IMG/VR virus record: IMGVR_UViG_3300025168_000504
Location: 1 to 27,834 of that record
Reading direction: 5' to 3' (one strand)
Origin: a virus
Taxonomy: Duplodnaviria; Caudoviricetes
Length of the DNA stretch: 27,834 nucleotides
In this document: positions 4,382 through 14,401 of the stretch, piece by piece
How positions within the stretch are numbered: position 1 is the stretch's first letter
Layout of the letters: each line of letters opens with the position of its first letter
The notes under the pieces: generated by a model
Database searches by the model: none
The model's input: the letters and a program-made list of their open reading frames with translations, nothing else
Told to the model about the DNA's origin: nothing
Position numbers and translations under genes: made by a program

Positions 4382-7300
4382 CTAGTCTTCTAACCGGCGG
4401 CGTAGCTTATCTTCACTGGCCGGACCCAGTAAAAGATCCATAGGTGAAGCACCTTCTACCTCATCAAGAAGGTTTCCGAGACCACCAGCAGTTCTGTTGG
4501 GCTGCACGGCAGGTATGCCCTTCAGTACTCCGAGCAACATAACGTAGGGGGCGAGCTTCTTAGCCCTGTCTGACCACACACGCTCGTCATCGGGAACCTT
4601 TGCATTTTCGTCTTCAACAAAAAGTTCCGGTACTTTTTTAGCTACACCAGATATAGCTTTGTCAATGGTTTCCCACGCAATAGTGCCTGCGCCCCCGCTG
4701 TATCCAAACCCACTTGCCCAGCCAGAAGACATCTCACGTAGCACTGGTATAGACCCTGTAAAAGTAGACAAACTTTCCCGTGCTATAAACTTTAGCATGG
4801 CGTGCTCTCTTTCTCCGGTTTTAAGATCTTCCTCTTCCCAATCAGGAAGCTTTCCCCGAACTAAGCCTACGCCTACAGAGGTTAAAGCCAGCAAGACAAA
4901 CATGCGCGTCGCAGCCCGTGCTATAGCAGCCGTAGGTCGCGTGGTTATATTGTCACGGAACTCTACGCCCATACCACGTTGCGTAGCGTACCACGCCGCA
5001 AACCATGTGTAGAACATGAGGAAGGGTTTCAGGTACGCCTTACGCTGAATGGGAGACAAGTCCTTCAAAGCTCCGGCAGATTGGCTGAGGCGAATTACTC
5101 GATCTGCGTATTTGACTGCGCGAGAAATGTCATTGGGGTTCGAGCGCAAAGATGTATTGTAAGCCGCTGTCCACACCGGCATATCCACGCTGTAGAACTG
5201 AACTTGCGCGATAGCCTGCATCGCAGTCCGCTGTATTACAGGTAGAACCGAGGTCTTGCCCTTGAGGTTGCGGAGGGCTTCATCCACGTTTTGATCGATA
5301 TTCTCACGCCTAAAGCGCATCTCGCCGGACACTTCCATAATCCACCGGGCGTGCTGTCCGTCCAAAGCCTTCAGACTACCAAAGGCCATATCTTTCTGCA
5401 GCATGGCAGCGTTCTTCGGGGTATAACCCACATCAGCAAGGATGCGGTCTTGACCGTTTATTATCCCTAGCGTCTGCATACCCAATGTAGTGTACGATGC
5501 GCCCAGAACGGCGACTGTCGTGTTTGTATATATCTGATTAAACAGCTCCCCCACTGCCCCGAGGTCTGTCGTATCGTTACTATTCACGGCCAATGCGGCA
5601 AGCCACGCCCGCAACTCTTTATAGTAGGCAGCGCCAACTTTAATCTCTACAGCAGCCTTAATATCTGGCTGGTTTAATATCTTGTTGCCGTTCTGCACTG
5701 CCTCGTAGTGTGTAATGAAATGAATGGTGTTCCGAAAACTGCTAGCTAGTTTGTCTATGTTCATAGTGATCGGCGCGGCATAGCCCGTTCGAGCTTTAGT
5801 CATCGAGCTGTTTACACTAGCCCGCCCAGCTTCGGCCTGCATCAACTGCAGAGCGTCTTTCTGCTCTGCATCAGCAGAGGCCCCCGCAACACTCTTGTCG
5901 TACATAAGCGGGAAGTATCCTCCCGTTACGTCCCCAAACTTAGTGGTAATCGTTCTTGGTTCTACACGGCCCGGAGATACGCCGTTTGTTTTGCGGTAAA
6001 TCGCATCAACCGCAGGCCACAATTTTTCTGCGTGCGCCCACACCGTTTTAACTAGGCTCCACTCTGCTTCTGTAAGCTGATCAAACGCGGTGTTCAATAT
6101 ATCTTCACTGATGTTCCACCCCGCACCCGTAACCTTGGTGTCTGCGTCTCCCCCCATACCCCGAATAAGCTTGTCGAGGTTACTTTCGTTTCCGGCGTTG
6201 AGGGCAAGCATGACAAGATTGCCGCGAGTGATACGCATACCCGGCTTACCTAGACCACCCAAAAGGCTAGGGTTTACAGCTTTTCCAAAACTCTTTTGCA
6301 CGCTCTTCGGCAGAGCAGCTACCAGCGCCCCGATTAAGTCGGACACTTCCAACTGCAATTCCTGAGATTGCACTGCCGCTGCACTAAACGGCTCGTACAG
6401 GGCTTGGTGCCACGGTCCCAGTACTGACCCATCCATTGCCTCTAGCAGCGCCTCGATTTTAAGTAATTGTCCGTCGATTGAGGCCATAAGAGATAGCGCT
6501 TTGAAACCGGTGATATTTTCTTCGGATGCGCTTTTGGCCCTGAACCTACTTACAAGAGTTTCTTTTCTTGCCGAAAGGGTGGTTAACAGCTCCGCTTTCA
6601 AAAGGCTTAGCTGTACGGCGTCTTCGCCTTTAAGGGCTCGCTTCGCATTGCGTCCTTGCGTGTCGTATCGTTTGATTACCTCGTGCAACTGCAAGAAGCG
6701 CAGATAGCTCATGCCCCTAATACTGTTATTTGGATTTGTTTCCGGGTCTAACAAGAAGTCGGGGACACTTAGCAATGCGCCGTCCTGCTCCTGCCTAGTT
6801 TCTATAAAGCTCTGTAACTCCGCTATCTCTGTTGTCCGCTCTGCTCTACCTGCAGCGCCGCCTTTAAAGTTAACGCTTTTAAGGATTGTCTTAATAACAT
6901 CTACATATTCGGCCTCGATAGACGGGAACTTCGCACCCGGTTTCGAGAATGTTTTCATATACGCGCTTTTCTTATCTACGTCGCGCTGTGCTTTAAGGGC
7001 TTCTGTAGCCATGTAGTGGTTAACAAGGCGGTGAAATTGGTGCTTGTAAGCCTCGGTGCGGTCGCCGCGCTTTAAGGCGGCACCTGCCAGATCAGCGTGT
7101 TTCTTCTCTGCTTGAATATATTTAACAGGGCGGATGTCTTTTGTAGCGGCTGCAAGGAGACTGTCTACGGCGTACTGGCGTACAAACTTTTGTTTAAACG
7201 CAGGCTCCGTTGTTCTCAAAGCCTGTAACTCTGCAGCTAGAACTTGAGCTGTCTTGTCTATATGAACGCTATCTACCGCTTCGTACATGCTGTCGAACGC

Positions 7301-10300
7301 GCCGTGGGTTTCCTCCATCTTGCTCTCGACTACTGCCTCTACCGCATCAGCGTAAGGCGCAACCTCGACAAGCTCTGCAATCATACTTATTACATCTTCG
7401 TAGCCAAAGGCAGCGGCTACTATGGCGGGGGCTTCGCCTCCCTCCATGTACAAGGTCTTACCAGCAACTTTAGGCATATCGGATAAGGAATACCCTTCAG
7501 CCTGCAAGACTTCTACCAGAGCAGTTTCGTCCATACGAGCAACTGCCTCGCCGTCAGGGAGAACAGATCCGTCAGCTAGGCCCAACTCCGTTATCGCGTA
7601 CATCAAACGGTAGACTGGTAGGGCCGCAACCTCCTGCCCTACTTCTGGTCGCAGTGCGTCTTTATTGTCTTTCCACCACTTTGTCAGCGTGCGCTTATGG
7701 TCTTGATTAGTTTTAGATAACTGCTTTGCTCGACGGGCCTCACCGGCTTCGGCAATGTTCTTCTGGTAGGCAGCAAACTGCGTCGGCGTCATACCGGCTT
7801 GCTCGGCGGTTTGTAGAAGAGGGGCCATACTGTATTGCCCCTCAACAATTGTGATCTCCTCATCCGAAGACAACATTCTATCTACGACACCCGTAACTTC
7901 TGGGGAAAATTTTACATCGAGGCCCGTAAAGCGCCTGTAAACGCTGCCTATCCACACTTTTAACTGAGAGAAGATGTTGCCAAGGGCGAGACTTGGAGCG
8001 CGTGCCGTAGCAAAGTAATCTTCTGCGCCGCGAGCAAATTGTTCGTGCATGGCGACGCTAAGGTATCGGCTGGGGCCTTCGCCGCGCAGCTCGCCGGATC
8101 TGGCATAAGCCGAGACTTGAGCCTCGGTCATCTGTTGCAGGGCAGCGACGCTGTCTTTGTCCTTGTCCTTCTTGGCGCGACGGACGGCCTCCTCGCGCAG
8201 CTCCAGAGGGCGGCTAGCCCACCAATCAGTGACGGTCTTAAAGTCTTGCTGGAAACCACCACCTACGGCGAGGGCGTCTGCCTTGAGCTGCTCCAGCCAG
8301 AAGTGACCACTTTCGTGCAGGAAGGTAGTCGGATCGGCCTTTTCAAATATCTGTATAAGGTTGACCGGGTTACCGTCCTGATCGTTAATTAAGTCTGAGG
8401 GGGTAAATCCGCCTCTGGGGCCTGCTGCTCCGCGCTGCTGCTCGAGGGCTGGTTGTTGTCCGCCTCGCTCGTACTGGTCGATGGCTGCGGCGACTTCTTG
8501 GGACGCTTGATCCCTGACATCACGATACCGCTGCCGAGCCACTCCCGCACTTCCTGCTGGGTCATTTCTGTCACTGGCATAGTCGTAATCCTTTTTCTCT
8601 GGGAACGCCGCCTGTAGTCGAGCGGCCTTAACATCATACTCTGAAGCAAGCGCATTATCAACAGCGTCTGCAAAACCACGCGGATCAACACCTTCTTCTA
8701 GGATTAGTGTCATCTGACCGTCTGTCGTTGACTGGCCGCCGATCTGAGGAAAACCCTCAATGCCGCGCAGGGTTTGATAGATCGCATCGATCTCCTGCAG
8801 GCTTTTGTCGCCAACCTGTATACGAACAGCCCCAGCCTCAAACGACCCCTCAAAAGCGTCGGCTGACAGGGCGACCATACTATCTTGGGACAGCACAAAA
8901 CCCACAGCATTAGCGACGGCAGCGGGGTCACCGGAAGTTAGACGCAGAGAGAACGACGGGTTTGTGTCTTCTAGGTAGCTACCGATTTGAGGAGATACTG
9001 AACCTTCAGCTTCTGCTGCTTCTAAGACAGAAGGCAGAACACTCTTCGATACGGTGTCGCTGATTGCGAGCTGCGCTGCAGGGGGAAGGGCGTTCCACCG
9101 GGCAGACAGCTCTACATTATTAGGGTCCGGCGCGACCTCGAATATAACGTCGCCGGCAAAGTCTACTTCTTGGAAGAGTTCTCGGCCATTATCTTGGACG
9201 CCAGCTTGCCCAGTCCCTGCAGTACCTTCGGGTCCGACAGATCCAGCATCTTGTCCAGAGACGGCTCCCTGTCCAGATCCTCCTGCTCCATCTCCTTCAA
9301 TTCCTTCGACTTCATATCCTTGGCTCCTAAATATCCGCGCAAACGTGGTGTCGTAACTCTCGTTGAGTGAGTTTGCTGTGACGACAGGGATGCCGTCCGC
9401 ATCAACCTCTAACTCGTCGCGCAGACCGCCCCATAATTCTTTCTCAGGATACCATAACAGAGCCTGCAAGTCAGCAGTAGTAACATCGATACCCCGCTCG
9501 GAAAGTATCTCGCGGGCGCGCTGCCCGACAGCCTCGACCTGCTTTCTCTGCGTGCCGTTAGCAATTTGGTCTAGGGGCGTAGACAGATTAGATTTGATAG
9601 CTTTTGCTGCTCGCGCCCATGTTGGCTGCAGCTCTGTGGGGATGTTGGCTGATCCATAGGTTTCCTGTAGCCGCTTATATTCCTTAGACCATGCCGTTAT
9701 TAAACGGTTTGAGTAAGCAAGCAGCGCGTCGTCCGTCTTTCCGTACTCAGCCTTCCAAGGCTCGGGGGCTTTAAGCCCTGCAAGATCAGACAACAGCGCC
9801 TTACCCTCAGAGACTTCTTTATTAAGACGGCGCGTCTCGGCGCTAAAATCTTTCTTTGTCTGGCCTTCAAGTTGTCCGGCGCTCTTATGCGCCTCAAGAG
9901 CGGCCTCGGAAGATGCTAGGTCAGATCGAGCCATCTCAATAAGGTCTGGCGAACCCTGCTCATTTGACCGGGATTTAGAGATTGCGGCTTTTAACCTGCG
10001 CCGCTGTGCGGGAACCGCGTCCGGCTGTCCAATACTCTTACCCGTTAGACGGCCCCAAGTGCGGCGCATCCACAAGTCGATTGTCAGCGGGTCAAAATTT
10101 CCGTTGAGGTTCTGCCAGAACCCATTGCCAATCTTAGGTCCGAGCGTCGAAGATCCGTAGACCACAGCATCCTTGGCTGTGTTACCCGGCGGGCTATACG
10201 GTATACCCGCAGCCTTCATCTCCACTTCCCACTCCCGCACTGTCTTACTAGCGCGGAACATGGCATCTAGCGCAGTCATACGCTCCGCAGAAGTGTCTCC

Positions 10301-13300
10301 GGGCATAGCATTAAGCATCGGGAGAAACTTCTCGAAGTTCTTGCCCATCGCTGCTTGCTTGTCTCCGGTCCCCCACTCCTTCTTCATGGAGTAGTCGCCG
10401 GATTTTATACTCTCCACCATTTCGGAGAAAGCAGTGTCTGCTGCTGTGGCGTTAAGAGACACACTCAGGTTTTGTGACGTCACCGCCATGATGTAGGTGA
10501 ACGCGAAGCGCGCGTTGCTCGACGTACCGAAGCCAGCCTCGGCTGCTGCCGCATCATCTTGCAGCATCGGGTATTTAATAGAAGCGACGTCCATTGCCCG
10601 GAGAACGGCTTCTGAGTACCAGTCAGCGGCGTTACCTGTACTCTCAAGGGCGAGCTGCGCCTCAGCAGCCGTAAGCCTGCCAAGCTGATTTATCTGCTCT
10701 TCGGATAATACCTCAGTGAAATCAATTATGGCGTCGCCGTCGAACTGATCCTCAAGCCACTTCGCAGCCTTCTCGTTAGTACCCAGCCGTTTAGTAGGCA
10801 TTGCCTCGGGTCGGTAGATCGGGTTGATCCGGGCCGCTTCATCCGCCGTAAGGCCGAGAGCTTCTGGATCTTGTACGGTAGCGCGTGCCTGCTCTAACGC
10901 ACCGTCAGGCGCGTCTTGGAACAGGATGTTGGGATCAGCCGGGTCAAACGCGCCACGGTTAAACGTGGACTTGATCTGCGTCGGCTCGAACGCGATTATC
11001 TCCTTAGCGCGTTCGTTTATAATGCCGTCATAACCCTGCGCTTTTAGTTCTTCTATTCTCGATTGCGGAATATACGATGTTTCTGCGCCATAGACCGGAG
11101 GTCTACGGCCCGCCCCGACGTTCTGAATGCGCTCTTTTATAGAACCCCAGAATGTCTGATCGGTAATGACCAAAGGGTTCTGAATACTTAGGTAAACAGG
11201 GTAAATCGCTGGGCCGGTGCCTTTTCTACCAGACCCCGTATAAGCCGAGGCATAATTTGAATCGTCGGTAAAATACATACCGGCTTGCCCGAACTGCCGT
11301 AAATACTCCTGACGCTCGGTAGAACCAGAAGCTGTAGGGTCGAACGCCTTAATGTCGTACTGGGTGCCGTGGTAGACGACCAGCGGATTGCCCTCGGCAT
11401 CGACGACTTTACTCTCACCAAACCATTCCTTGAAGCGCGGCGTCTGAGTGATGTCTCCGCCAGCCTCAGCAAGCTCTGCCTGTAGAACCTCTGTAGATAC
11501 GCCGAACTCTTTGGCTGACTGCTCAAGAAGGTCTTGGCGCAACTGGACTGGGTCGCCTTCTGTGACGTCGAACAGCTCGGCGCTGTCGAGAAGGGCCTGA
11601 TCCCAAATGACCATCTCGTTAATAGACTTCTTCTCATGCCCACTAATACCGGCTTCGACAAGACGCTCGGTTCCGTTTTCAAGCTCGCTGCGTATGCGCG
11701 AAATTAAGTTGCCGACCGACTCATTTGCGCCAATCTCAATACCGGCTTCGGCGGCTAAGTCAGCAAGCGTCTGCTGCATTTCTGAAGACAGGTCAGAAAC
11801 ACGAGACATAAAATCGACAACACCGGATAAACTTTCGGCGGGGAGGCGCGCTTCGTAGCTACGCCCACCGCGTGCAAACTGTGTTGCTTGATTTCCGCCT
11901 TCTGTTGAGAAGTAGATGCCAGCAGTTTCTCTGGGGCTTGTAGAAGTTGGGTCGTTGGCGCGGCCCGTGAATGCGAGATCTAACTTACCGCCTTCAAGAG
12001 CTGGGCCGCCGTGGCGGAGAGTAACGACAGAAGAGGAGCTGTCTTTGCCTCGTATTGTATCCCACACAGAACGAAGTCTGCCTTGTTCAAGCGCAGAGGA
12101 CTGTGCTGCGGGCTGGCCTCCCTGTATCCGCAAGTTATCGGCCTCAAACAGAGCAGCAGCGTCTACTGGCTCTCCGGTTTCGCGGGCAATGCGGACGGCT
12201 CGGGCGGTGTATCGGCTTGCAGTTAAGAGGGCAAAGGCGTCGGACTTATCTGCGTCGTATCGACCAGTAGCCTTGATCTGCTCTGCTACTAAAGAGCGAA
12301 TAGCCGCTGCGTCATCCGCAAGCTTGTCAAGAACAGGCTTAGTAAGTTCTGGGCCTAGCAGCTTGTCAACTTCCTCTTTTAGAAAGTCTTCAATACGTAC
12401 ACCTTCTTCGACGGCTCTCTCCGCCTCATCTGGTGTTAGAGCGCCTTCTTCAAAAGTGGTGTGGCGGATCAAAGAGTCAAAACCGTCTTTACCTAGAATA
12501 TGGCGTATAAACGTCTCAGCGCCTATCTGGACATCTTGACCTTCGGCTGCTGCAAGCCTTACTTCTTCCTGCGTAAGGCCCAGCGTGTCTATTGCGTCTC
12601 CATCCTGATTAAATATTAATAAGTTTTCGGCACTAATATAGACGTCTGGGGTTCCCTCAGCAGCCATTCTATCGGCTAGGATGCTGGCTGCGGTGTCTAA
12701 TTTTTCAATGGGGATACCTGAGACAATGCCCGACAACTCCTCGTTACCGCGCAACCACTCTTTAAGTCTTTTATCGTCGGCACGTTTAAGAACATCCGCA
12801 TGTCCAGCAACAGTTAGCTGTAGACTTGTCATAAGCGGGCCGCTGCCTAAGATACCTTCAAGAAGCGCCTCTTGGAAATCGTAATTTCCAGTAGCAAGCC
12901 GTCCTGCGTACAGTTCGCCGAGGGATTCTCCCAAAGTATTTACTCCGGTAGCCCTAGAAACATTCAAGGTCATAGACCGCGTAGGCTTTAGGGCAGCCGC
13001 AACTTTTATTCCCGTGAGGCTTGCAACGCTAATCGTAGCAGCGCGAACGCCTAGAAAGCGCTTCATTTCTTGGTTGGCAACGACAGAGGCGTCTGTCTCG
13101 TTTCGAGCAAATTCAGCTCTACCCGAAATTGTTCTAAGATCGATCTTTCCATCGGTTATGTCTAAGATAGATTTATAAAGCTTAGGGTCATTAATGTTTG
13201 CTAATTCTCGCAGCGCACCATGCGCCGTCATTAGAGAGAGCCCAACGGTGGGGGCACCTAGCGACGTTGCAACTAACCCAGCAGCTATGCCGGGGAAACT

Positions 13301-14401
13301 CTCCGCACTTGTAATCGTCGCCCACTTCGCCGTGGCGACTGGATTTGCAGCTAAATAGGCAAGCGTCTCTCCTTGATCAAAAAACCCATCTCCTTTAGGC
13401 ATACCGTCAATCAGAGCCTGCACGTCTGAAGGGTACTTGTAGTCTTTACCCGCTTTAATTATAGCTTTGGTGGAGATGTCAAACACCCGCACAGCTTCGG
13501 CTCTAAGCGCAGCGGCGTCTTCTGGGTCAGTAACGGACGCAGCTATTGCGGCGGCGGCACCGGCTCCCGTTTTGCCTACAACCTCAACGGGAAAAGCGAG
13601 CGGTTTAGCCACACCGAGTATTCCTAAATTTAAGCTCCAATTCTCAAATGCATCAACAAACGCCTCGCCCGGCTTACCGGCAAACTTCGCTCGGCTTGCA
13701 GCACTGCGTCTTTGAGCTTCGCCTACAACGCCCCAAAAAGTTTGAATAGAAGATTTGACTGGGGCTTCAATTACCGCATCTACAAAAGATACGTCTCGAC
13801 GGCGCGCAGCCAGAGCCTCTGCTGTACGGTCTTCAGGAGACATCATTATACGAAGGTACGTCGCTATCGAGCCCTCAGCAGAGAACATCAGTGGGATATC
13901 CCCACGCAAAATGGCCGCCTCTTCGGCGCTTTGCGCTAAACGCTCTCTAGTCGCGCTTTCAAGGGCCAAAGCTTTACGCAGCCCCGGGGTTCCTATAATA
14001 GATTTGAGTTGGTCGTCGGAATAACCTGATAAAACTTCTTTGCTAAGGCCGGAGTACGTCTTGATTGCGATCTTTTCGATGGCCGCACGATTGCTGTTTA
14101 TATCTGAAGTTAGGTCGAAGTTTTGGAGAACAGCTTCCGATAGTGGGTTTATCGTCAAACCTCGGTCAGCGGCTTCGGTATTGGGAAGTGCGCCACCCAT
14201 AAAATTCCATTGGCGCTCGGGAGCAACCACTGGCTCTTGCCCAGCCTTGTATGGCGCGACGCGACTAGGATCTAAGGGAGGGGGAGCTGGGGCTTCGGGA
14301 ATGGGTTTAGACGGGAAAACAATTCTAGGCTTTGGAGCCGCAACATCTGGCGCAACATCTGGCGCAACAGATGGCTCAGACGGAAAATTATAGACGGCCA
14401 T
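4382..14401 (-). CDS. Giant internal virion/DNA-ejection protein, polyvalent multi-domain protein (3339 aa)
   Basis: Third and largest gene of the ejection-protein block, between tail tube/GNAT and tail fibre (T7 gp16 position). Hydrophobic helices near aa 370-395; central effector cassettes; HESGH metallopeptidase; long helical C-terminus with GGYFPLMYD...TKARTG. Confidence 0.9.
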   Translation of the reverse strand: MAVYNFPSEPSVAPDVAPDVAAPKPRIVFPSKPIPEAPAPPPLDPSRVAPYKAGQEPVVAPERQWNFMGGALPNTEAADRGLTINPLSEAVLQNFDLTSDINSNRAAIEKIAIKTYSGLSKEVLSGYSDDQLKSIIGTPGLRKALALESATRERLAQSAEEAAILRGDIPLMFSAEGSIATYLRIMMSPEDRTAEALAARRRDVSFVDAVIEAPVKSSIQTFWGVVGEAQRRSAASRAKFAGKPGEAFVDAFENWSLNLGILGVAKPLAFPVEVVGKTGAGAAAAIAASVTDPEDAAALRAEAVRVFDISTKAIIKAGKDYKYPSDVQALIDGMPKGDGFFDQGETLAYLAANPVATAKWATITSAESFPGIAAGLVATSLGAPTVGLSLMTAHGALRELANINDPKLYKSILDITDGKIDLRTISGRAEFARNETDASVVANQEMKRFLGVRAATISVASLTGIKVAAALKPTRSMTLNVSRATGVNTLGESLGELYAGRLATGNYDFQEALLEGILGSGPLMTSLQLTVAGHADVLKRADDKRLKEWLRGNEELSGIVSGIPIEKLDTAASILADRMAAEGTPDVYISAENLLIFNQDGDAIDTLGLTQEEVRLAAAEGQDVQIGAETFIRHILGKDGFDSLIRHTTFEEGALTPDEAERAVEEGVRIEDFLKEEVDKLLGPELTKPVLDKLADDAAAIRSLVAEQIKATGRYDADKSDAFALLTASRYTARAVRIARETGEPVDAAALFEADNLRIQGGQPAAQSSALEQGRLRSVWDTIRGKDSSSSVVTLRHGGPALEGGKLDLAFTGRANDPTSTSPRETAGIYFSTEGGNQATQFARGGRSYEARLPAESLSGVVDFMSRVSDLSSEMQQTLADLAAEAGIEIGANESVGNLISRIRSELENGTERLVEAGISGHEKKSINEMVIWDQALLDSAELFDVTEGDPVQLRQDLLEQSAKEFGVSTEVLQAELAEAGGDITQTPRFKEWFGESKVVDAEGNPLVVYHGTQYDIKAFDPTASGSTERQEYLRQFGQAGMYFTDDSNYASAYTGSGRKGTGPAIYPVYLSIQNPLVITDQTFWGSIKERIQNVGAGRRPPVYGAETSYIPQSRIEELKAQGYDGIINERAKEIIAFEPTQIKSTFNRGAFDPADPNILFQDAPDGALEQARATVQDPEALGLTADEAARINPIYRPEAMPTKRLGTNEKAAKWLEDQFDGDAIIDFTEVLSEEQINQLGRLTAAEAQLALESTGNAADWYSEAVLRAMDVASIKYPMLQDDAAAAEAGFGTSSNARFAFTYIMAVTSQNLSVSLNATAADTAFSEMVESIKSGDYSMKKEWGTGDKQAAMGKNFEKFLPMLNAMPGDTSAERMTALDAMFRASKTVREWEVEMKAAGIPYSPPGNTAKDAVVYGSSTLGPKIGNGFWQNLNGNFDPLTIDLWMRRTWGRLTGKSIGQPDAVPAQRRRLKAAISKSRSNEQGSPDLIEMARSDLASSEAALEAHKSAGQLEGQTKKDFSAETRRLNKEVSEGKALLSDLAGLKAPEPWKAEYGKTDDALLAYSNRLITAWSKEYKRLQETYGSANIPTELQPTWARAAKAIKSNLSTPLDQIANGTQRKQVEAVGQRAREILSERGIDVTTADLQALLWYPEKELWGGLRDELEVDADGIPVVTANSLNESYDTTFARIFRSQGYEVEGIEGDGAGGSGQGAVSGQDAGSVGPEGTAGTGQAGVQDNGRELFQEVDFAGDVIFEVAPDPNNVELSARWNALPPAAQLAISDTVSKSVLPSVLEAAEAEGSVSPQIGSYLEDTNPSFSLRLTSGDPAAVANAVGFVLSQDSMVALSADAFEGSFEAGAVRIQVGDKSLQEIDAIYQTLRGIEGFPQIGGQSTTDGQMTLILEEGVDPRGFADAVDNALASEYDVKAARLQAAFPEKKDYDYASDRNDPAGSAGVARQRYRDVRDQASQEVAAAIDQYERGGQQPALEQQRGAAGPRGGFTPSDLINDQDGNPVNLIQIFEKADPTTFLHESGHFWLEQLKADALAVGGGFQQDFKTVTDWWASRPLELREEAVRRAKKDKDKDSVAALQQMTEAQVSAYARSGELRGEGPSRYLSVAMHEQFARGAEDYFATARAPSLALGNIFSQLKVWIGSVYRRFTGLDVKFSPEVTGVVDRMLSSDEEITIVEGQYSMAPLLQTAEQAGMTPTQFAAYQKNIAEAGEARRAKQLSKTNQDHKRTLTKWWKDNKDALRPEVGQEVAALPVYRLMYAITELGLADGSVLPDGEAVARMDETALVEVLQAEGYSLSDMPKVAGKTLYMEGGEAPAIVAAAFGYEDVISMIAELVEVAPYADAVEAVVESKMEETHGAFDSMYEAVDSVHIDKTAQVLAAELQALRTTEPAFKQKFVRQYAVDSLLAAATKDIRPVKYIQAEKKHADLAGAALKRGDRTEAYKHQFHRLVNHYMATEALKAQRDVDKKSAYMKTFSKPGAKFPSIEAEYVDVIKTILKSVNFKGGAAGRAERTTEIAELQSFIETRQEQDGALLSVPDFLLDPETNPNNSIRGMSYLRFLQLHEVIKRYDTQGRNAKRALKGEDAVQLSLLKAELLTTLSARKETLVSRFRAKSASEENITGFKALSLMASIDGQLLKIEALLEAMDGSVLGPWHQALYEPFSAAAVQSQELQLEVSDLIGALVAALPKSVQKSFGKAVNPSLLGGLGKPGMRITRGNLVMLALNAGNESNLDKLIRGMGGDADTKVTGAGWNISEDILNTAFDQLTEAEWSLVKTVWAHAEKLWPAVDAIYRKTNGVSPGRVEPRTITTKFGDVTGGYFPLMYDKSVAGASADAEQKDALQLMQAEAGRASVNSSMTKARTGYAAPITMNIDKLASSFRNTIHFITHYEAVQNGNKILNQPDIKAAVEIKVGAAYYKELRAWLAALAVNSNDTTDLGAVGELFNQIYTNTTVAVLGASYTTLGMQTLGIINGQDRILADVGYTPKNAAMLQKDMAFGSLKALDGQHARWIMEVSGEMRFRRENIDQNVDEALRNLKGKTSVLPVIQRTAMQAIAQVQFYSVDMPVWTAAYNTSLRSNPNDISRAVKYADRVIRLSQSAGALKDLSPIQRKAYLKPFLMFYTWFAAWYATQRGMGVEFRDNITTRPTAAIARAATRMFVLLALTSVGVGLVRGKLPDWEEEDLKTGEREHAMLKFIARESLSTFTGSIPVLREMSSGWASGFGYSGGAGTIAWETIDKAISGVAKKVPELFVEDENAKVPDDERVWSDRAKKLAPYVMLLGVLKGIPAVQPNRTAGGLGNLLDEVEGASPMDLLLGPASEDKLRRRLED
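7850..8437 (-). other. Zincin-like HExxH metallopeptidase domain within the giant protein (MPTase-like)
   Basis: RGGF...IQIFEKADPTTFLHESGH (H2029-H2033, nt 8303-8317), with a downstream HEQFARGAEDY (E2120 as candidate third ligand). Boundaries approximate. Confidence 0.75.
8389..8580 (-). CDS. Overprinted small ORF (63 aa) in the +1 frame of the giant gene
   Basis: AAAAAGGA SD, with AAGGA 8 nt before ATG 8580. Product MPVTEMTQQEVREWLGSGIVMSGIKRPKKSPQP... has a protein-like N-terminal half. Located at the 3' end of cassette 4. Confidence 0.6.
   Translation of the reverse strand: MPVTEMTQQEVREWLGSGIVMSGIKRPKKSPQPSTSTSEADNNQPSSSSAEQQAPEADLPPQT
8438..9169 (-). other. Cassette 4 of the giant protein (aa 1745-1988), uncharacterised alpha/beta domain, possibly SAM-lyase-like
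   Basis: Bounded by ELFQ and ALEQ. Motif IGSYLEDTNPSF...AVGFVLSQDSMV loosely recalls the G-x-Y...Q-D-x-hydrophobic pattern of phage T3-type SAM lyases. Confidence 0.35.
9163..9315 (-). CDS. Overprinted small ORF (50 aa) in the +1 frame of the giant gene
   Basis: TAGGAG SD, with AGGAG at 9324-9328, 8 nt before ATG 9315. Product MKSKELKEMEQEDLDREPSLDKMLDLSDPKVLQGLGKLASKIMAENSSKK. The host frame here becomes a Gly-rich linker, and the stop falls just after the LFQ boundary. Confidence 0.65.
   Translation of the reverse strand: MKSKELKEMEQEDLDREPSLDKMLDLSDPKVLQGLGKLASKIMAENSSKK
9170..10888 (-). other. Cassette 3 of the giant protein (aa 1172-1744), helix-hairpin-helix DNA-glycosylase-like domain
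   Basis: Ordered motifs DWYS, AVTSQNLSVSLN, LGPKIGNGFWQNL, PLTIDLWM, DLQALLW. GPK...TIDxW...QAxxW mirrors the HhH-GPD pattern (HhH Lys, then conserved Asp). Confidence 0.55.
10916..11518 (-). other. Cassette 2 of the giant protein (aa 962-1162), ART-PolyVal-type ADP-ribosyltransferase domain
   Basis: FKEWFGESKVVDAEGNPLVVYHGT...GMYFT...YASAY...IYPVYLSIQNPL...GYDGII...EIIAFEPTQIKS, the typical signature of this family. Confidence 0.85.
11534..12082 (-). other. Cassette 1 of the giant protein (aa 774-956), divergent ADP-ribosyltransferase-like domain
   Basis: TLRHGG...AGIYFS...ATQFA...SYEARL...AGISGH...NEMVIWD has the same motif order (H-G, G-x-Y-F, G-x-x-G, E-x-V-x-W/F) as cassette 2. Confidence 0.65.
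14341..14369 (-). repeat. 12-nt direct repeat x2.4 encoding VAPDVAPDVA at the N-terminus of the giant protein
   Basis: caacatctggcg caacatctggcg caaca on the + strand. Confidence 0.7.

Follow-up and report, generated by a model that had tools for sequence, protein, structure and literature searches.

The question raised by this locus is whether the Gly-rich linker of a giant phage protein hides a second gene in another reading frame and, if so, what the product of that gene does to the domain that precedes it. The window (the whole 27,834-nucleotide stretch of viral DNA analysed here, IMG/VR record IMGVR_UViG_3300025168_000504) carries a minus-strand podophage structural block, comprising terminase, head-tail adaptor, major head protein, two tail proteins, acetyltransferase and internal virion protein. 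Downstream of this block lies a giant polyvalent virion protein gene (4382..14401, minus strand; ORF 14401..4382, 3339 aa). PHROG 9880 is matched at both ends of the 3339-codon gene and an ART-PolyVal domain occupies aa 1001-1148 of the protein, therefore the gene fits the polyvalent proteins as they appear in the accessible part of Iyer et al. (2017; PMC5512222), being a large multidomain protein with a known polyvalent domain, encoded in a virion gene block. BFVD matches are likewise large polyvalent proteins, all of them uncharacterised, and the nearest sequencing runs are marine and brine metagenomes. Polyvalent proteins are expected to be packaged and injected, according to the same portion of that paper (Iyer et al., 2017; PMC5512222), and such a protein has been detected in virions, with ejection proposed, in the available section of the phi24B preprint. 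The giant protein encoded here is a chain of swappable cassettes and, judging from its context, is likely packaged and ejected.

Cassette 3 of this chain (host aa about 1205-1692; 9326..10789, minus strand) is followed by the linker in question. Here a Shine-Dalgarno-like TAGGAG (9324..9329, minus strand) is separated by an 8-nt spacer from the start codon, ATG, of ORF A, a nested +1-frame gene of 50 aa (9163..9315, minus strand), as can be read directly from the sequence and as the original prediction had described. The ATG (9315..9313) spans the host codons for Tyr1696-Glu1697 (TAT GAA), and the product has the core EPSLDKM..L.DPKVL.GLG.L and is, on the evidence set out below, predicted to bind cassette 3 and probably to inhibit it. 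The open +1 frame reaches back to 9408 and includes a weak ATG at 9402, but conservation begins at the Met at 9315. Across the +1 and +2 ORFs of the giant gene, ATGs preceded by a five-base SD occur only at 9315, 9291, 8787 and 8580; the one at 9291 sits inside ORF A, and the one at 8787 has a spacing of 4 and opens 25 codons. The host frame had been said to turn Gly-rich where the +1 ORF begins, and host aa 1701-1740, with 14 Gly and 4 hydrophobic residues, are indeed extreme among all 40-residue windows of the giant protein, forming its most Gly-rich and least hydrophobic stretch. The recovery of the host frame at the end of ORF A lies near LFQ, as claimed, but the stop does not follow LFQ immediately: it falls two codons later, as a TAG at 9165..9163 overlapping the host V-D of LFQEVD. 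The acidic stretch ascribed to the +1 product exists in its first half (10 D/E and 5 K/R in residues 1-28), whereas the whole peptide is not net acidic (11 D/E, 10 K/R). No Pfam or PHROG family was found for ORF A. The peptide alone is sometimes predicted as a gene by gene callers (7 matches). Contigs from two RNA libraries cover 9202-10000 and are uninformative on strand, level and translation.

Searches returned 167 loci, of which 125 were distinct and anchored on the domain end motif, the other 42 being duplicates or lacking the anchor. Among the 19 distinct loci of the close clade, the +1 ATG is present in every one, 42-53 codons past the anchor, and the +1 frame is open in all. The ATG stays while the host residue beneath it varies (Y/N/H/D), the host codon being TAT in 11 loci, AAT in five, CAT in two and GAT in one, against a background in the domain of 416 such T-ending codons in 1132. 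By reading of the sequences, GGAG or GAGG precedes the ATG in 18 of the 19, L095 being the one without it. Selection was then compared between frames on the same bases. In pairwise comparisons of 11 core loci, dN/dS over the overlap comes to 0.22 for +1 and 2.07 for host, and the relation flips in the upstream domain (host 0.15, +1 1.32); over all 18 full-length loci the overlap values are 0.41 for +1 and 1.75 for host. These are pairwise rates in which pairs are not independent and synonymous sites are partly saturated. The corresponding pN/pS values for the 11 core loci are 0.35 in +1 (codon-bootstrap 95% interval 0.24-0.50) and 1.83 in the host frame (1.29-2.84). A host dN/dS above one is not positive selection, since it mirrors selection in the other frame. 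The original prediction held that selection acts on the +1 frame while the host frame is merely kept open, and the flip between domain and overlap supports this. The frame-specific comparison that it proposed gives purifying selection in +1 and not in the host frame, and the pattern that it named as refuting, +1 stops or a missing SD or ATG in homologues that keep the Gly-rich linker, is not seen in the close clade, apart from the SD of L095. With an open frame, conserved start signals and purifying selection on +1, ORF A is confirmed, at the level of sequence, to bear the marks of a real overprinted gene.

The arrangement extends well beyond the close clade. A strict test, for which the +1 frame had to contain an SD-ATG ORF no shorter than 35 codons and lying 36-68 codons past the domain end motif, was passed by 55 of 100 internal loci. 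In the +2 frame none of the 100 loci passed, and in each of 15 shifted windows 0-7 of 81-100 did. In a further 20 loci the host ORF stops shortly past the domain, and the strict test was passed by five of them in +1 and by one in +2. When homologues were clustered at 50% identity, 25 of the 26 clusters had an ATG-led +1 ORF after the domain, which in 15 comes with an SD; the cluster-level controls yielded 3-7 ATG-led ORFs in 18-26 clusters, 0-3 with an SD, and the +2 frame yielded one in 26. An unannotated AAGGAG-ATG +1 ORF is also found at the equivalent place in the cultured Limnohabitans phage DC33 (PQ492659.1), whose record (L197) has a taxonomy line that says Inoviridae and a genome of 39 kb with a 9.4-kb podophage-type gene. 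In three further loci (L146, L147 and L160), from genomes of cultured alphaproteobacteria (Methylobacterium, Pararhizobium and Mesorhizobium), the domain terminates shorter ORFs and an overlapping +1 ORF is still present, and experiments may be simpler there. A looser test was failed by 9 of 133 loci, eight of which do carry the peptide, though it begins at a different start, has a shortened end or lies in a different frame. The ninth, L161, is the only homologue without a nested ORF (1 of 133 loci); its Lys and Asp (see below) are intact, and it is also without a long Gly/Arg-rich linker, a single case. At about 3943-4300 of L161 the host frame encodes a short helical segment, loosely like the helix of the peptides, which could be an in-frame replacement acting in cis.

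What the partner domain might be is suggested by its structure. The AlphaFold2 model of cassette 3, built without the peptide, has a pLDDT of 94, and its best VIA match is the 8-oxoguanine glycosylase 3n0u (Z 10.4, rmsd 4.0, 195 aligned), followed by MagIII, DUF2419, endonuclease III, NTHL1 and ROS1. These top six rows span Z 9.1-10.4 with 181-228 aligned residues; Z values of 8-11 are middling for a helical protein, and short helical hairpins reach up to Z 9.0, on the insertion of cassette 3 only. For the compact homologue L116, the top 23 VIA rows are of HhH type and the first unrelated row has Z 5.5. We take the top rows for cassette 3 and L116 to belong to one HhH superfamily. Foldseek against the PDB returned no match for either model, so the fold was found by VIA only; PDB sequence searches of the domain gave nothing significant, and no Pfam or PHROG family was found for cassette 3 of the window. 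Weak matches to DUF7178 were obtained in 15 of 91 cassette 3 members, and the Atlas places DUF7178 at 14% of members. Cassette 3 is thus predicted, from modelling, to have an HhH DNA-glycosylase-like fold with a long helical insertion.

Two residues of the domain are invariant in 91 of 91 rows, namely Lys1423 (Lys219 of the domain; codon starting at 10135, minus strand) and Asp1442 (Asp238 of the domain; codon starting at 10078, minus strand). In the HhH glycosylases, the catalytic Lys lies on the second HhH helix with the Asp after it, and the HhH is a DNA-binding element, as stated in the available part of one source (PMC8307549). The antiviral Dag1 uses a Lys-Asp pair and a Trp against modified phage DNA, according to the accessible portion of a preprint (10.1101/2025.10.29.685425). 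Cassette 3 resembles these enzymes (OGG, Nth, AGOG, Dag1/Dag2) in its predicted fold and, putatively, in an invariant Lys where the second HhH helix begins, in an Asp 19 residues after that Lys and in a conserved Trp nearby. It differs in being a cassette of a phage virion protein, with a long helical insertion and a nested partner ORF. Structural alignments with HhH glycosylases run at 7-14% identity, and Lys219 opens helix 218-228 of the model, Lys219 and Asp238 being candidate counterparts of the catalytic residues of the solved enzymes. The fold does not settle activity, because its matches include enzymes that do not damage DNA, such as the queuine salvage enzyme DUF2419 and the phage base modifier gp46/PUGT.

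When cassette 3 and the ORF A peptide were modelled together, the complex score was 0.70 (median of three runs), and the best of three controls scored 0.00. The 0.70 mark is reached by 116 of 157 solved pairs and by 2 of 215 mismatched pairs, a calibration that applies roughly here, with our own alignments. Between runs, 63% or more of the contacts are shared, and the partner pLDDT is 72 or higher. Searches for solved structures related in sequence to the domain came back empty; that the score merely reproduces a memorised structure is thereby less likely, though conceivable. Peptide residues 14-43, the conserved core, contact domain residues 154-222, 237 and 408-415 in the model. The modelled interface includes 214-218 (STLGP, just before the invariant Lys219), 221-222, 237 and 408-415, and much of the interface, 154-205, is variable across the domain family. 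Leu20 and Asp21 of the peptide pair with domain residues 212-217, Asp21 with Ser214 and Gly217; Asp21 is invariant in the 10-row core, though not in all 19 close loci. Lys219 and Asp238 themselves are absent from the confident modelled contacts. The peptide is predicted by the model to sit on the HhH hairpin of cassette 3.

Taken with the genetics, this placement leads us to the reading that ORF A probably encodes a peptide that blocks DNA access in the producer cell, with the enzyme acting after ejection; our confidence in it is moderate. Late in infection, one mRNA would yield both the giant protein and, from an internal ribosome-binding site, the peptide, which would cover the DNA-binding face of cassette 3 and keep the domain switched off. 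The replicating DNA of the phage and the producer cell would thereby be protected. Packaging and ejection would then bring the giant protein into the next cell with too little of the peptide, and there the domain could act on DNA, either the host genome or the modified DNA of a competitor. With the inhibitor gene placed in the linker, enzyme and inhibitor would move as one cassette and the giant reading frame would be unbroken, and the Gly/Ala/Arg-rich linker would be a by-product of the overprinted ORF A. Inhibitors of the acidic DNA-mimic kind (Ugi/Ocr type) carry a strong net negative charge. A plain acidic DNA mimic finds no support in the charge of ORF A and was set aside, since the peptide as a whole is not net acidic.

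Binding need not mean inhibition. The peptide may instead bind cassette 3 as an aid to folding, packaging or ejection, or as an activating subunit, which we consider unlikely but the most serious of the alternatives. The complex model gives a binding site only, and its lowest-error contacts include helices and a loop (158-199) that are distant from the putative catalytic Lys and Asp. However, the predicted site also covers the HhH hairpin, a DNA-binding element in the part of the source cited above (PMC8307549), and L161 manages without any nested partner. The domain model is confident without the peptide, which is uninformative on kinetics.

A different possibility is that ORF A is a real small gene with a target of its own, in host or phage regulation or in anti-defence, and merely hitch-hikes with cassette 3. 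Adjacency alone yields co-inheritance and matching trees. A search with the peptide alignment placed all nine matching loci downstream of cassette 3, so that the peptide was never found without the domain. Of the giant proteins, 65 have the close domain; the start leaves its host-frame shadow in 63 of them and EPSLDKM does so in 53, and the neighbours of domain plus linker are diverse: the next cassette falls into 15 groups (65 proteins) and the previous one into 22 groups (61 proteins). Contigs of other runs part from the window at 9173-9202, past the peptide core, so these swaps alter only the peptide tail. Further out, the nested ORF is held at the same position across about 27-35% domain identity. 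Seven peptide motif families follow the domain clades, with 15 label changes on a quick tree, where shuffled labels average 58 (the tree omits 12 of 103 rows, in which the motif was missing from the segment taken); this tracking is not proof of co-evolution, because kin share labels. In profile comparisons, families B, C, E and F match one another weakly to well (probability 52-95%), and for family A the best match to any of the six other motif families, at a probability of 1.8%, is not significant. Cognate genetic linkage, as in effector-immunity and toxin-antitoxin pairs, is thus found here with one exception, L161, and judged from gene neighbourhoods the analysis shows that the peptide stays tied to its cassette through cassette shuffling. 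This constancy, together with a passing complex model whose three controls all score 0.00, makes a mere hitch-hiker quite improbable.

We give a low probability to a third alternative, in which the +1 frame is reached by ribosomal frameshift, producing a shorter giant protein with the peptide as a C-terminal tail that possibly inhibits in cis. It draws on the IEPHE-type loci (L030, L108, L112-L115, L123, L126, L128-L134 and L143), in which the ATG is conserved and is without an SD, the upstream sequence being A-rich, and in which the +1 frame often continues past the host stop. This subfamily keeps TAT at the start position in 16 of 19 cases against a background of 85 of 167, and either initiation without an SD or a frameshift may apply to it. 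In family A, however, the +1 frame carries a stop four codons upstream of the ATG in nine of the 19 loci and immediately upstream in one, the ATG survives changes of the host residue, and the SD stands at initiation distance. The partner in L033, moreover, is a separate, ordinary adjacent gene that overlaps the host stop and resembles the nested peptide of L034. Finally, that ORF A is an untranslated by-product of the Gly/Ala-rich linker is barely credible and is strongly disfavoured by the comparison of frames: Gly-rich host sequence does bias the +1 frame to Glu and Asp, but over the overlap the host residues are less constant than those of +1 (identity 0.50 vs 0.68), and the selection signal remains where no host frame overlaps, the peptide core lying beyond the host stop in six distinct loci with a pN/pS there of 0.48.

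Cassette 3 is not the only part of the giant protein to be followed by such an ORF. Cassette 4 (host aa about 1748-1945; 8567..9160, minus strand), for which 20 homologous loci were found, has no Pfam or PHROG match and no convincing Atlas match (none at 0.9 or above). It is closed by ORF B, a second nested +1 ORF of 63 aa (8389..8580, minus strand) with AAGGA 8 nt before its ATG. In 20 of 20 loci the ATG of ORF B lies at the same host TAT codon and the frame is open, and the product has a conserved motif of its own, unrelated in sequence to ORF A. The selection signal is weaker than for ORF A, with a pN/pS of 0.67 in +1 vs 0.89 in the host frame (18 distinct sequences). The ART cassette of the giant gene has no such nested ORF. 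In 13 of the 20 cassette 4 loci a distant cassette 3 relative lies directly before (L181-L184 and L189-L196, counting L178), and given this frequent adjacency the two domains may work together. Cassette joints recur at ALEQ or LFQ codons (8437-8449 and 12082-12094, minus strand, and 9173-9202), and contigs of other runs switch sequence there, which suggests that these places are shared recombination joints. Before the ART-PolyVal domain, at about 11550-12030 (minus strand; host aa 790-950), there is a cassette with H and Y motifs reminiscent of ART, for which no Pfam or PHROG match was found. In the +1 frame there, 171 codons (11703..11188) are free of stops, and no good SD precedes them.

Both nested genes and effector-immunity pairs are known kinds. 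The lambda Rz1 gene inside Rz is, like ORF A, nested in +1 on the same strand and has a ribosome-binding site of its own, and its product partners the outer one, as is predicted for ORF A; ORF A, in contrast, is not a lipoprotein or a lysis gene, and nested ORFs recur per cassette and move by shuffling. As in effector-immunity and type II toxin-antitoxin modules, a small cognate partner stands beside an enzyme, co-diverges with it and is predicted to bind near its active face. Unlike in those systems, the partner lies out of frame inside the giant ORF of the enzyme itself, which would make several pairs chainable in one polypeptide gene, and inhibition is putative. Engineered alternate-frame insertions, in the accessible part of a preprint (10.1101/2024.11.07.622342), are synthetic and place a toxin inside a resistance gene, whereas ORF A occurs naturally and here it is the inner gene that probably inhibits. 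The polyvalent proteins, as presented in the portion of Iyer et al. (2017; PMC5512222) available to us, share with the giant protein its large multidomain, late virion character, the ART-PolyVal domain, an HExxH metallopeptidase-type motif, the swapping of domains between relatives and the proposal of packaging and injection. Neither nested partner genes nor a glycosylase-like cassette are named in that portion; 'overlap', 'glycosylase' and 'linker' each occur 0 times in the main text, and the supplement could list the domain under an LPD name. A literature search, with most subscription journals outside its coverage, found no published description of nested genes in polyvalent proteins.

A broader reading, which we advance tentatively and rate at somewhat less than an even chance, is that giant ejection proteins are chains of enzyme-plus-antidote cassettes with the antidotes placed out of frame in the linkers; here an HhH glycosylase would attack the DNA of the newly infected cell, and a 50-residue peptide would cap its DNA-binding hairpin in the producer cell. 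If this is true, it would reveal a new class of glycosylase inhibitor and a layer of unannotated small genes across thousands of phages. It would explain how DNA-attacking enzymes can be chained in one protein with the phage's own replication unharmed, and also why the linkers of such giant proteins are rich in Gly and Arg. The rule for finding missed genes would be a simple one, namely to inspect the +1 frame behind each cassette. The arrangement is testable, the domain being common (546 confirmed matches in one viral-contig scan) and carried by the cultured Limnohabitans DC33. A peptide inhibitor of an HhH-fold enzyme and a glycosylase-like effector delivered by the virion would each be relevant to the biology of phage conflict and to DNA repair.
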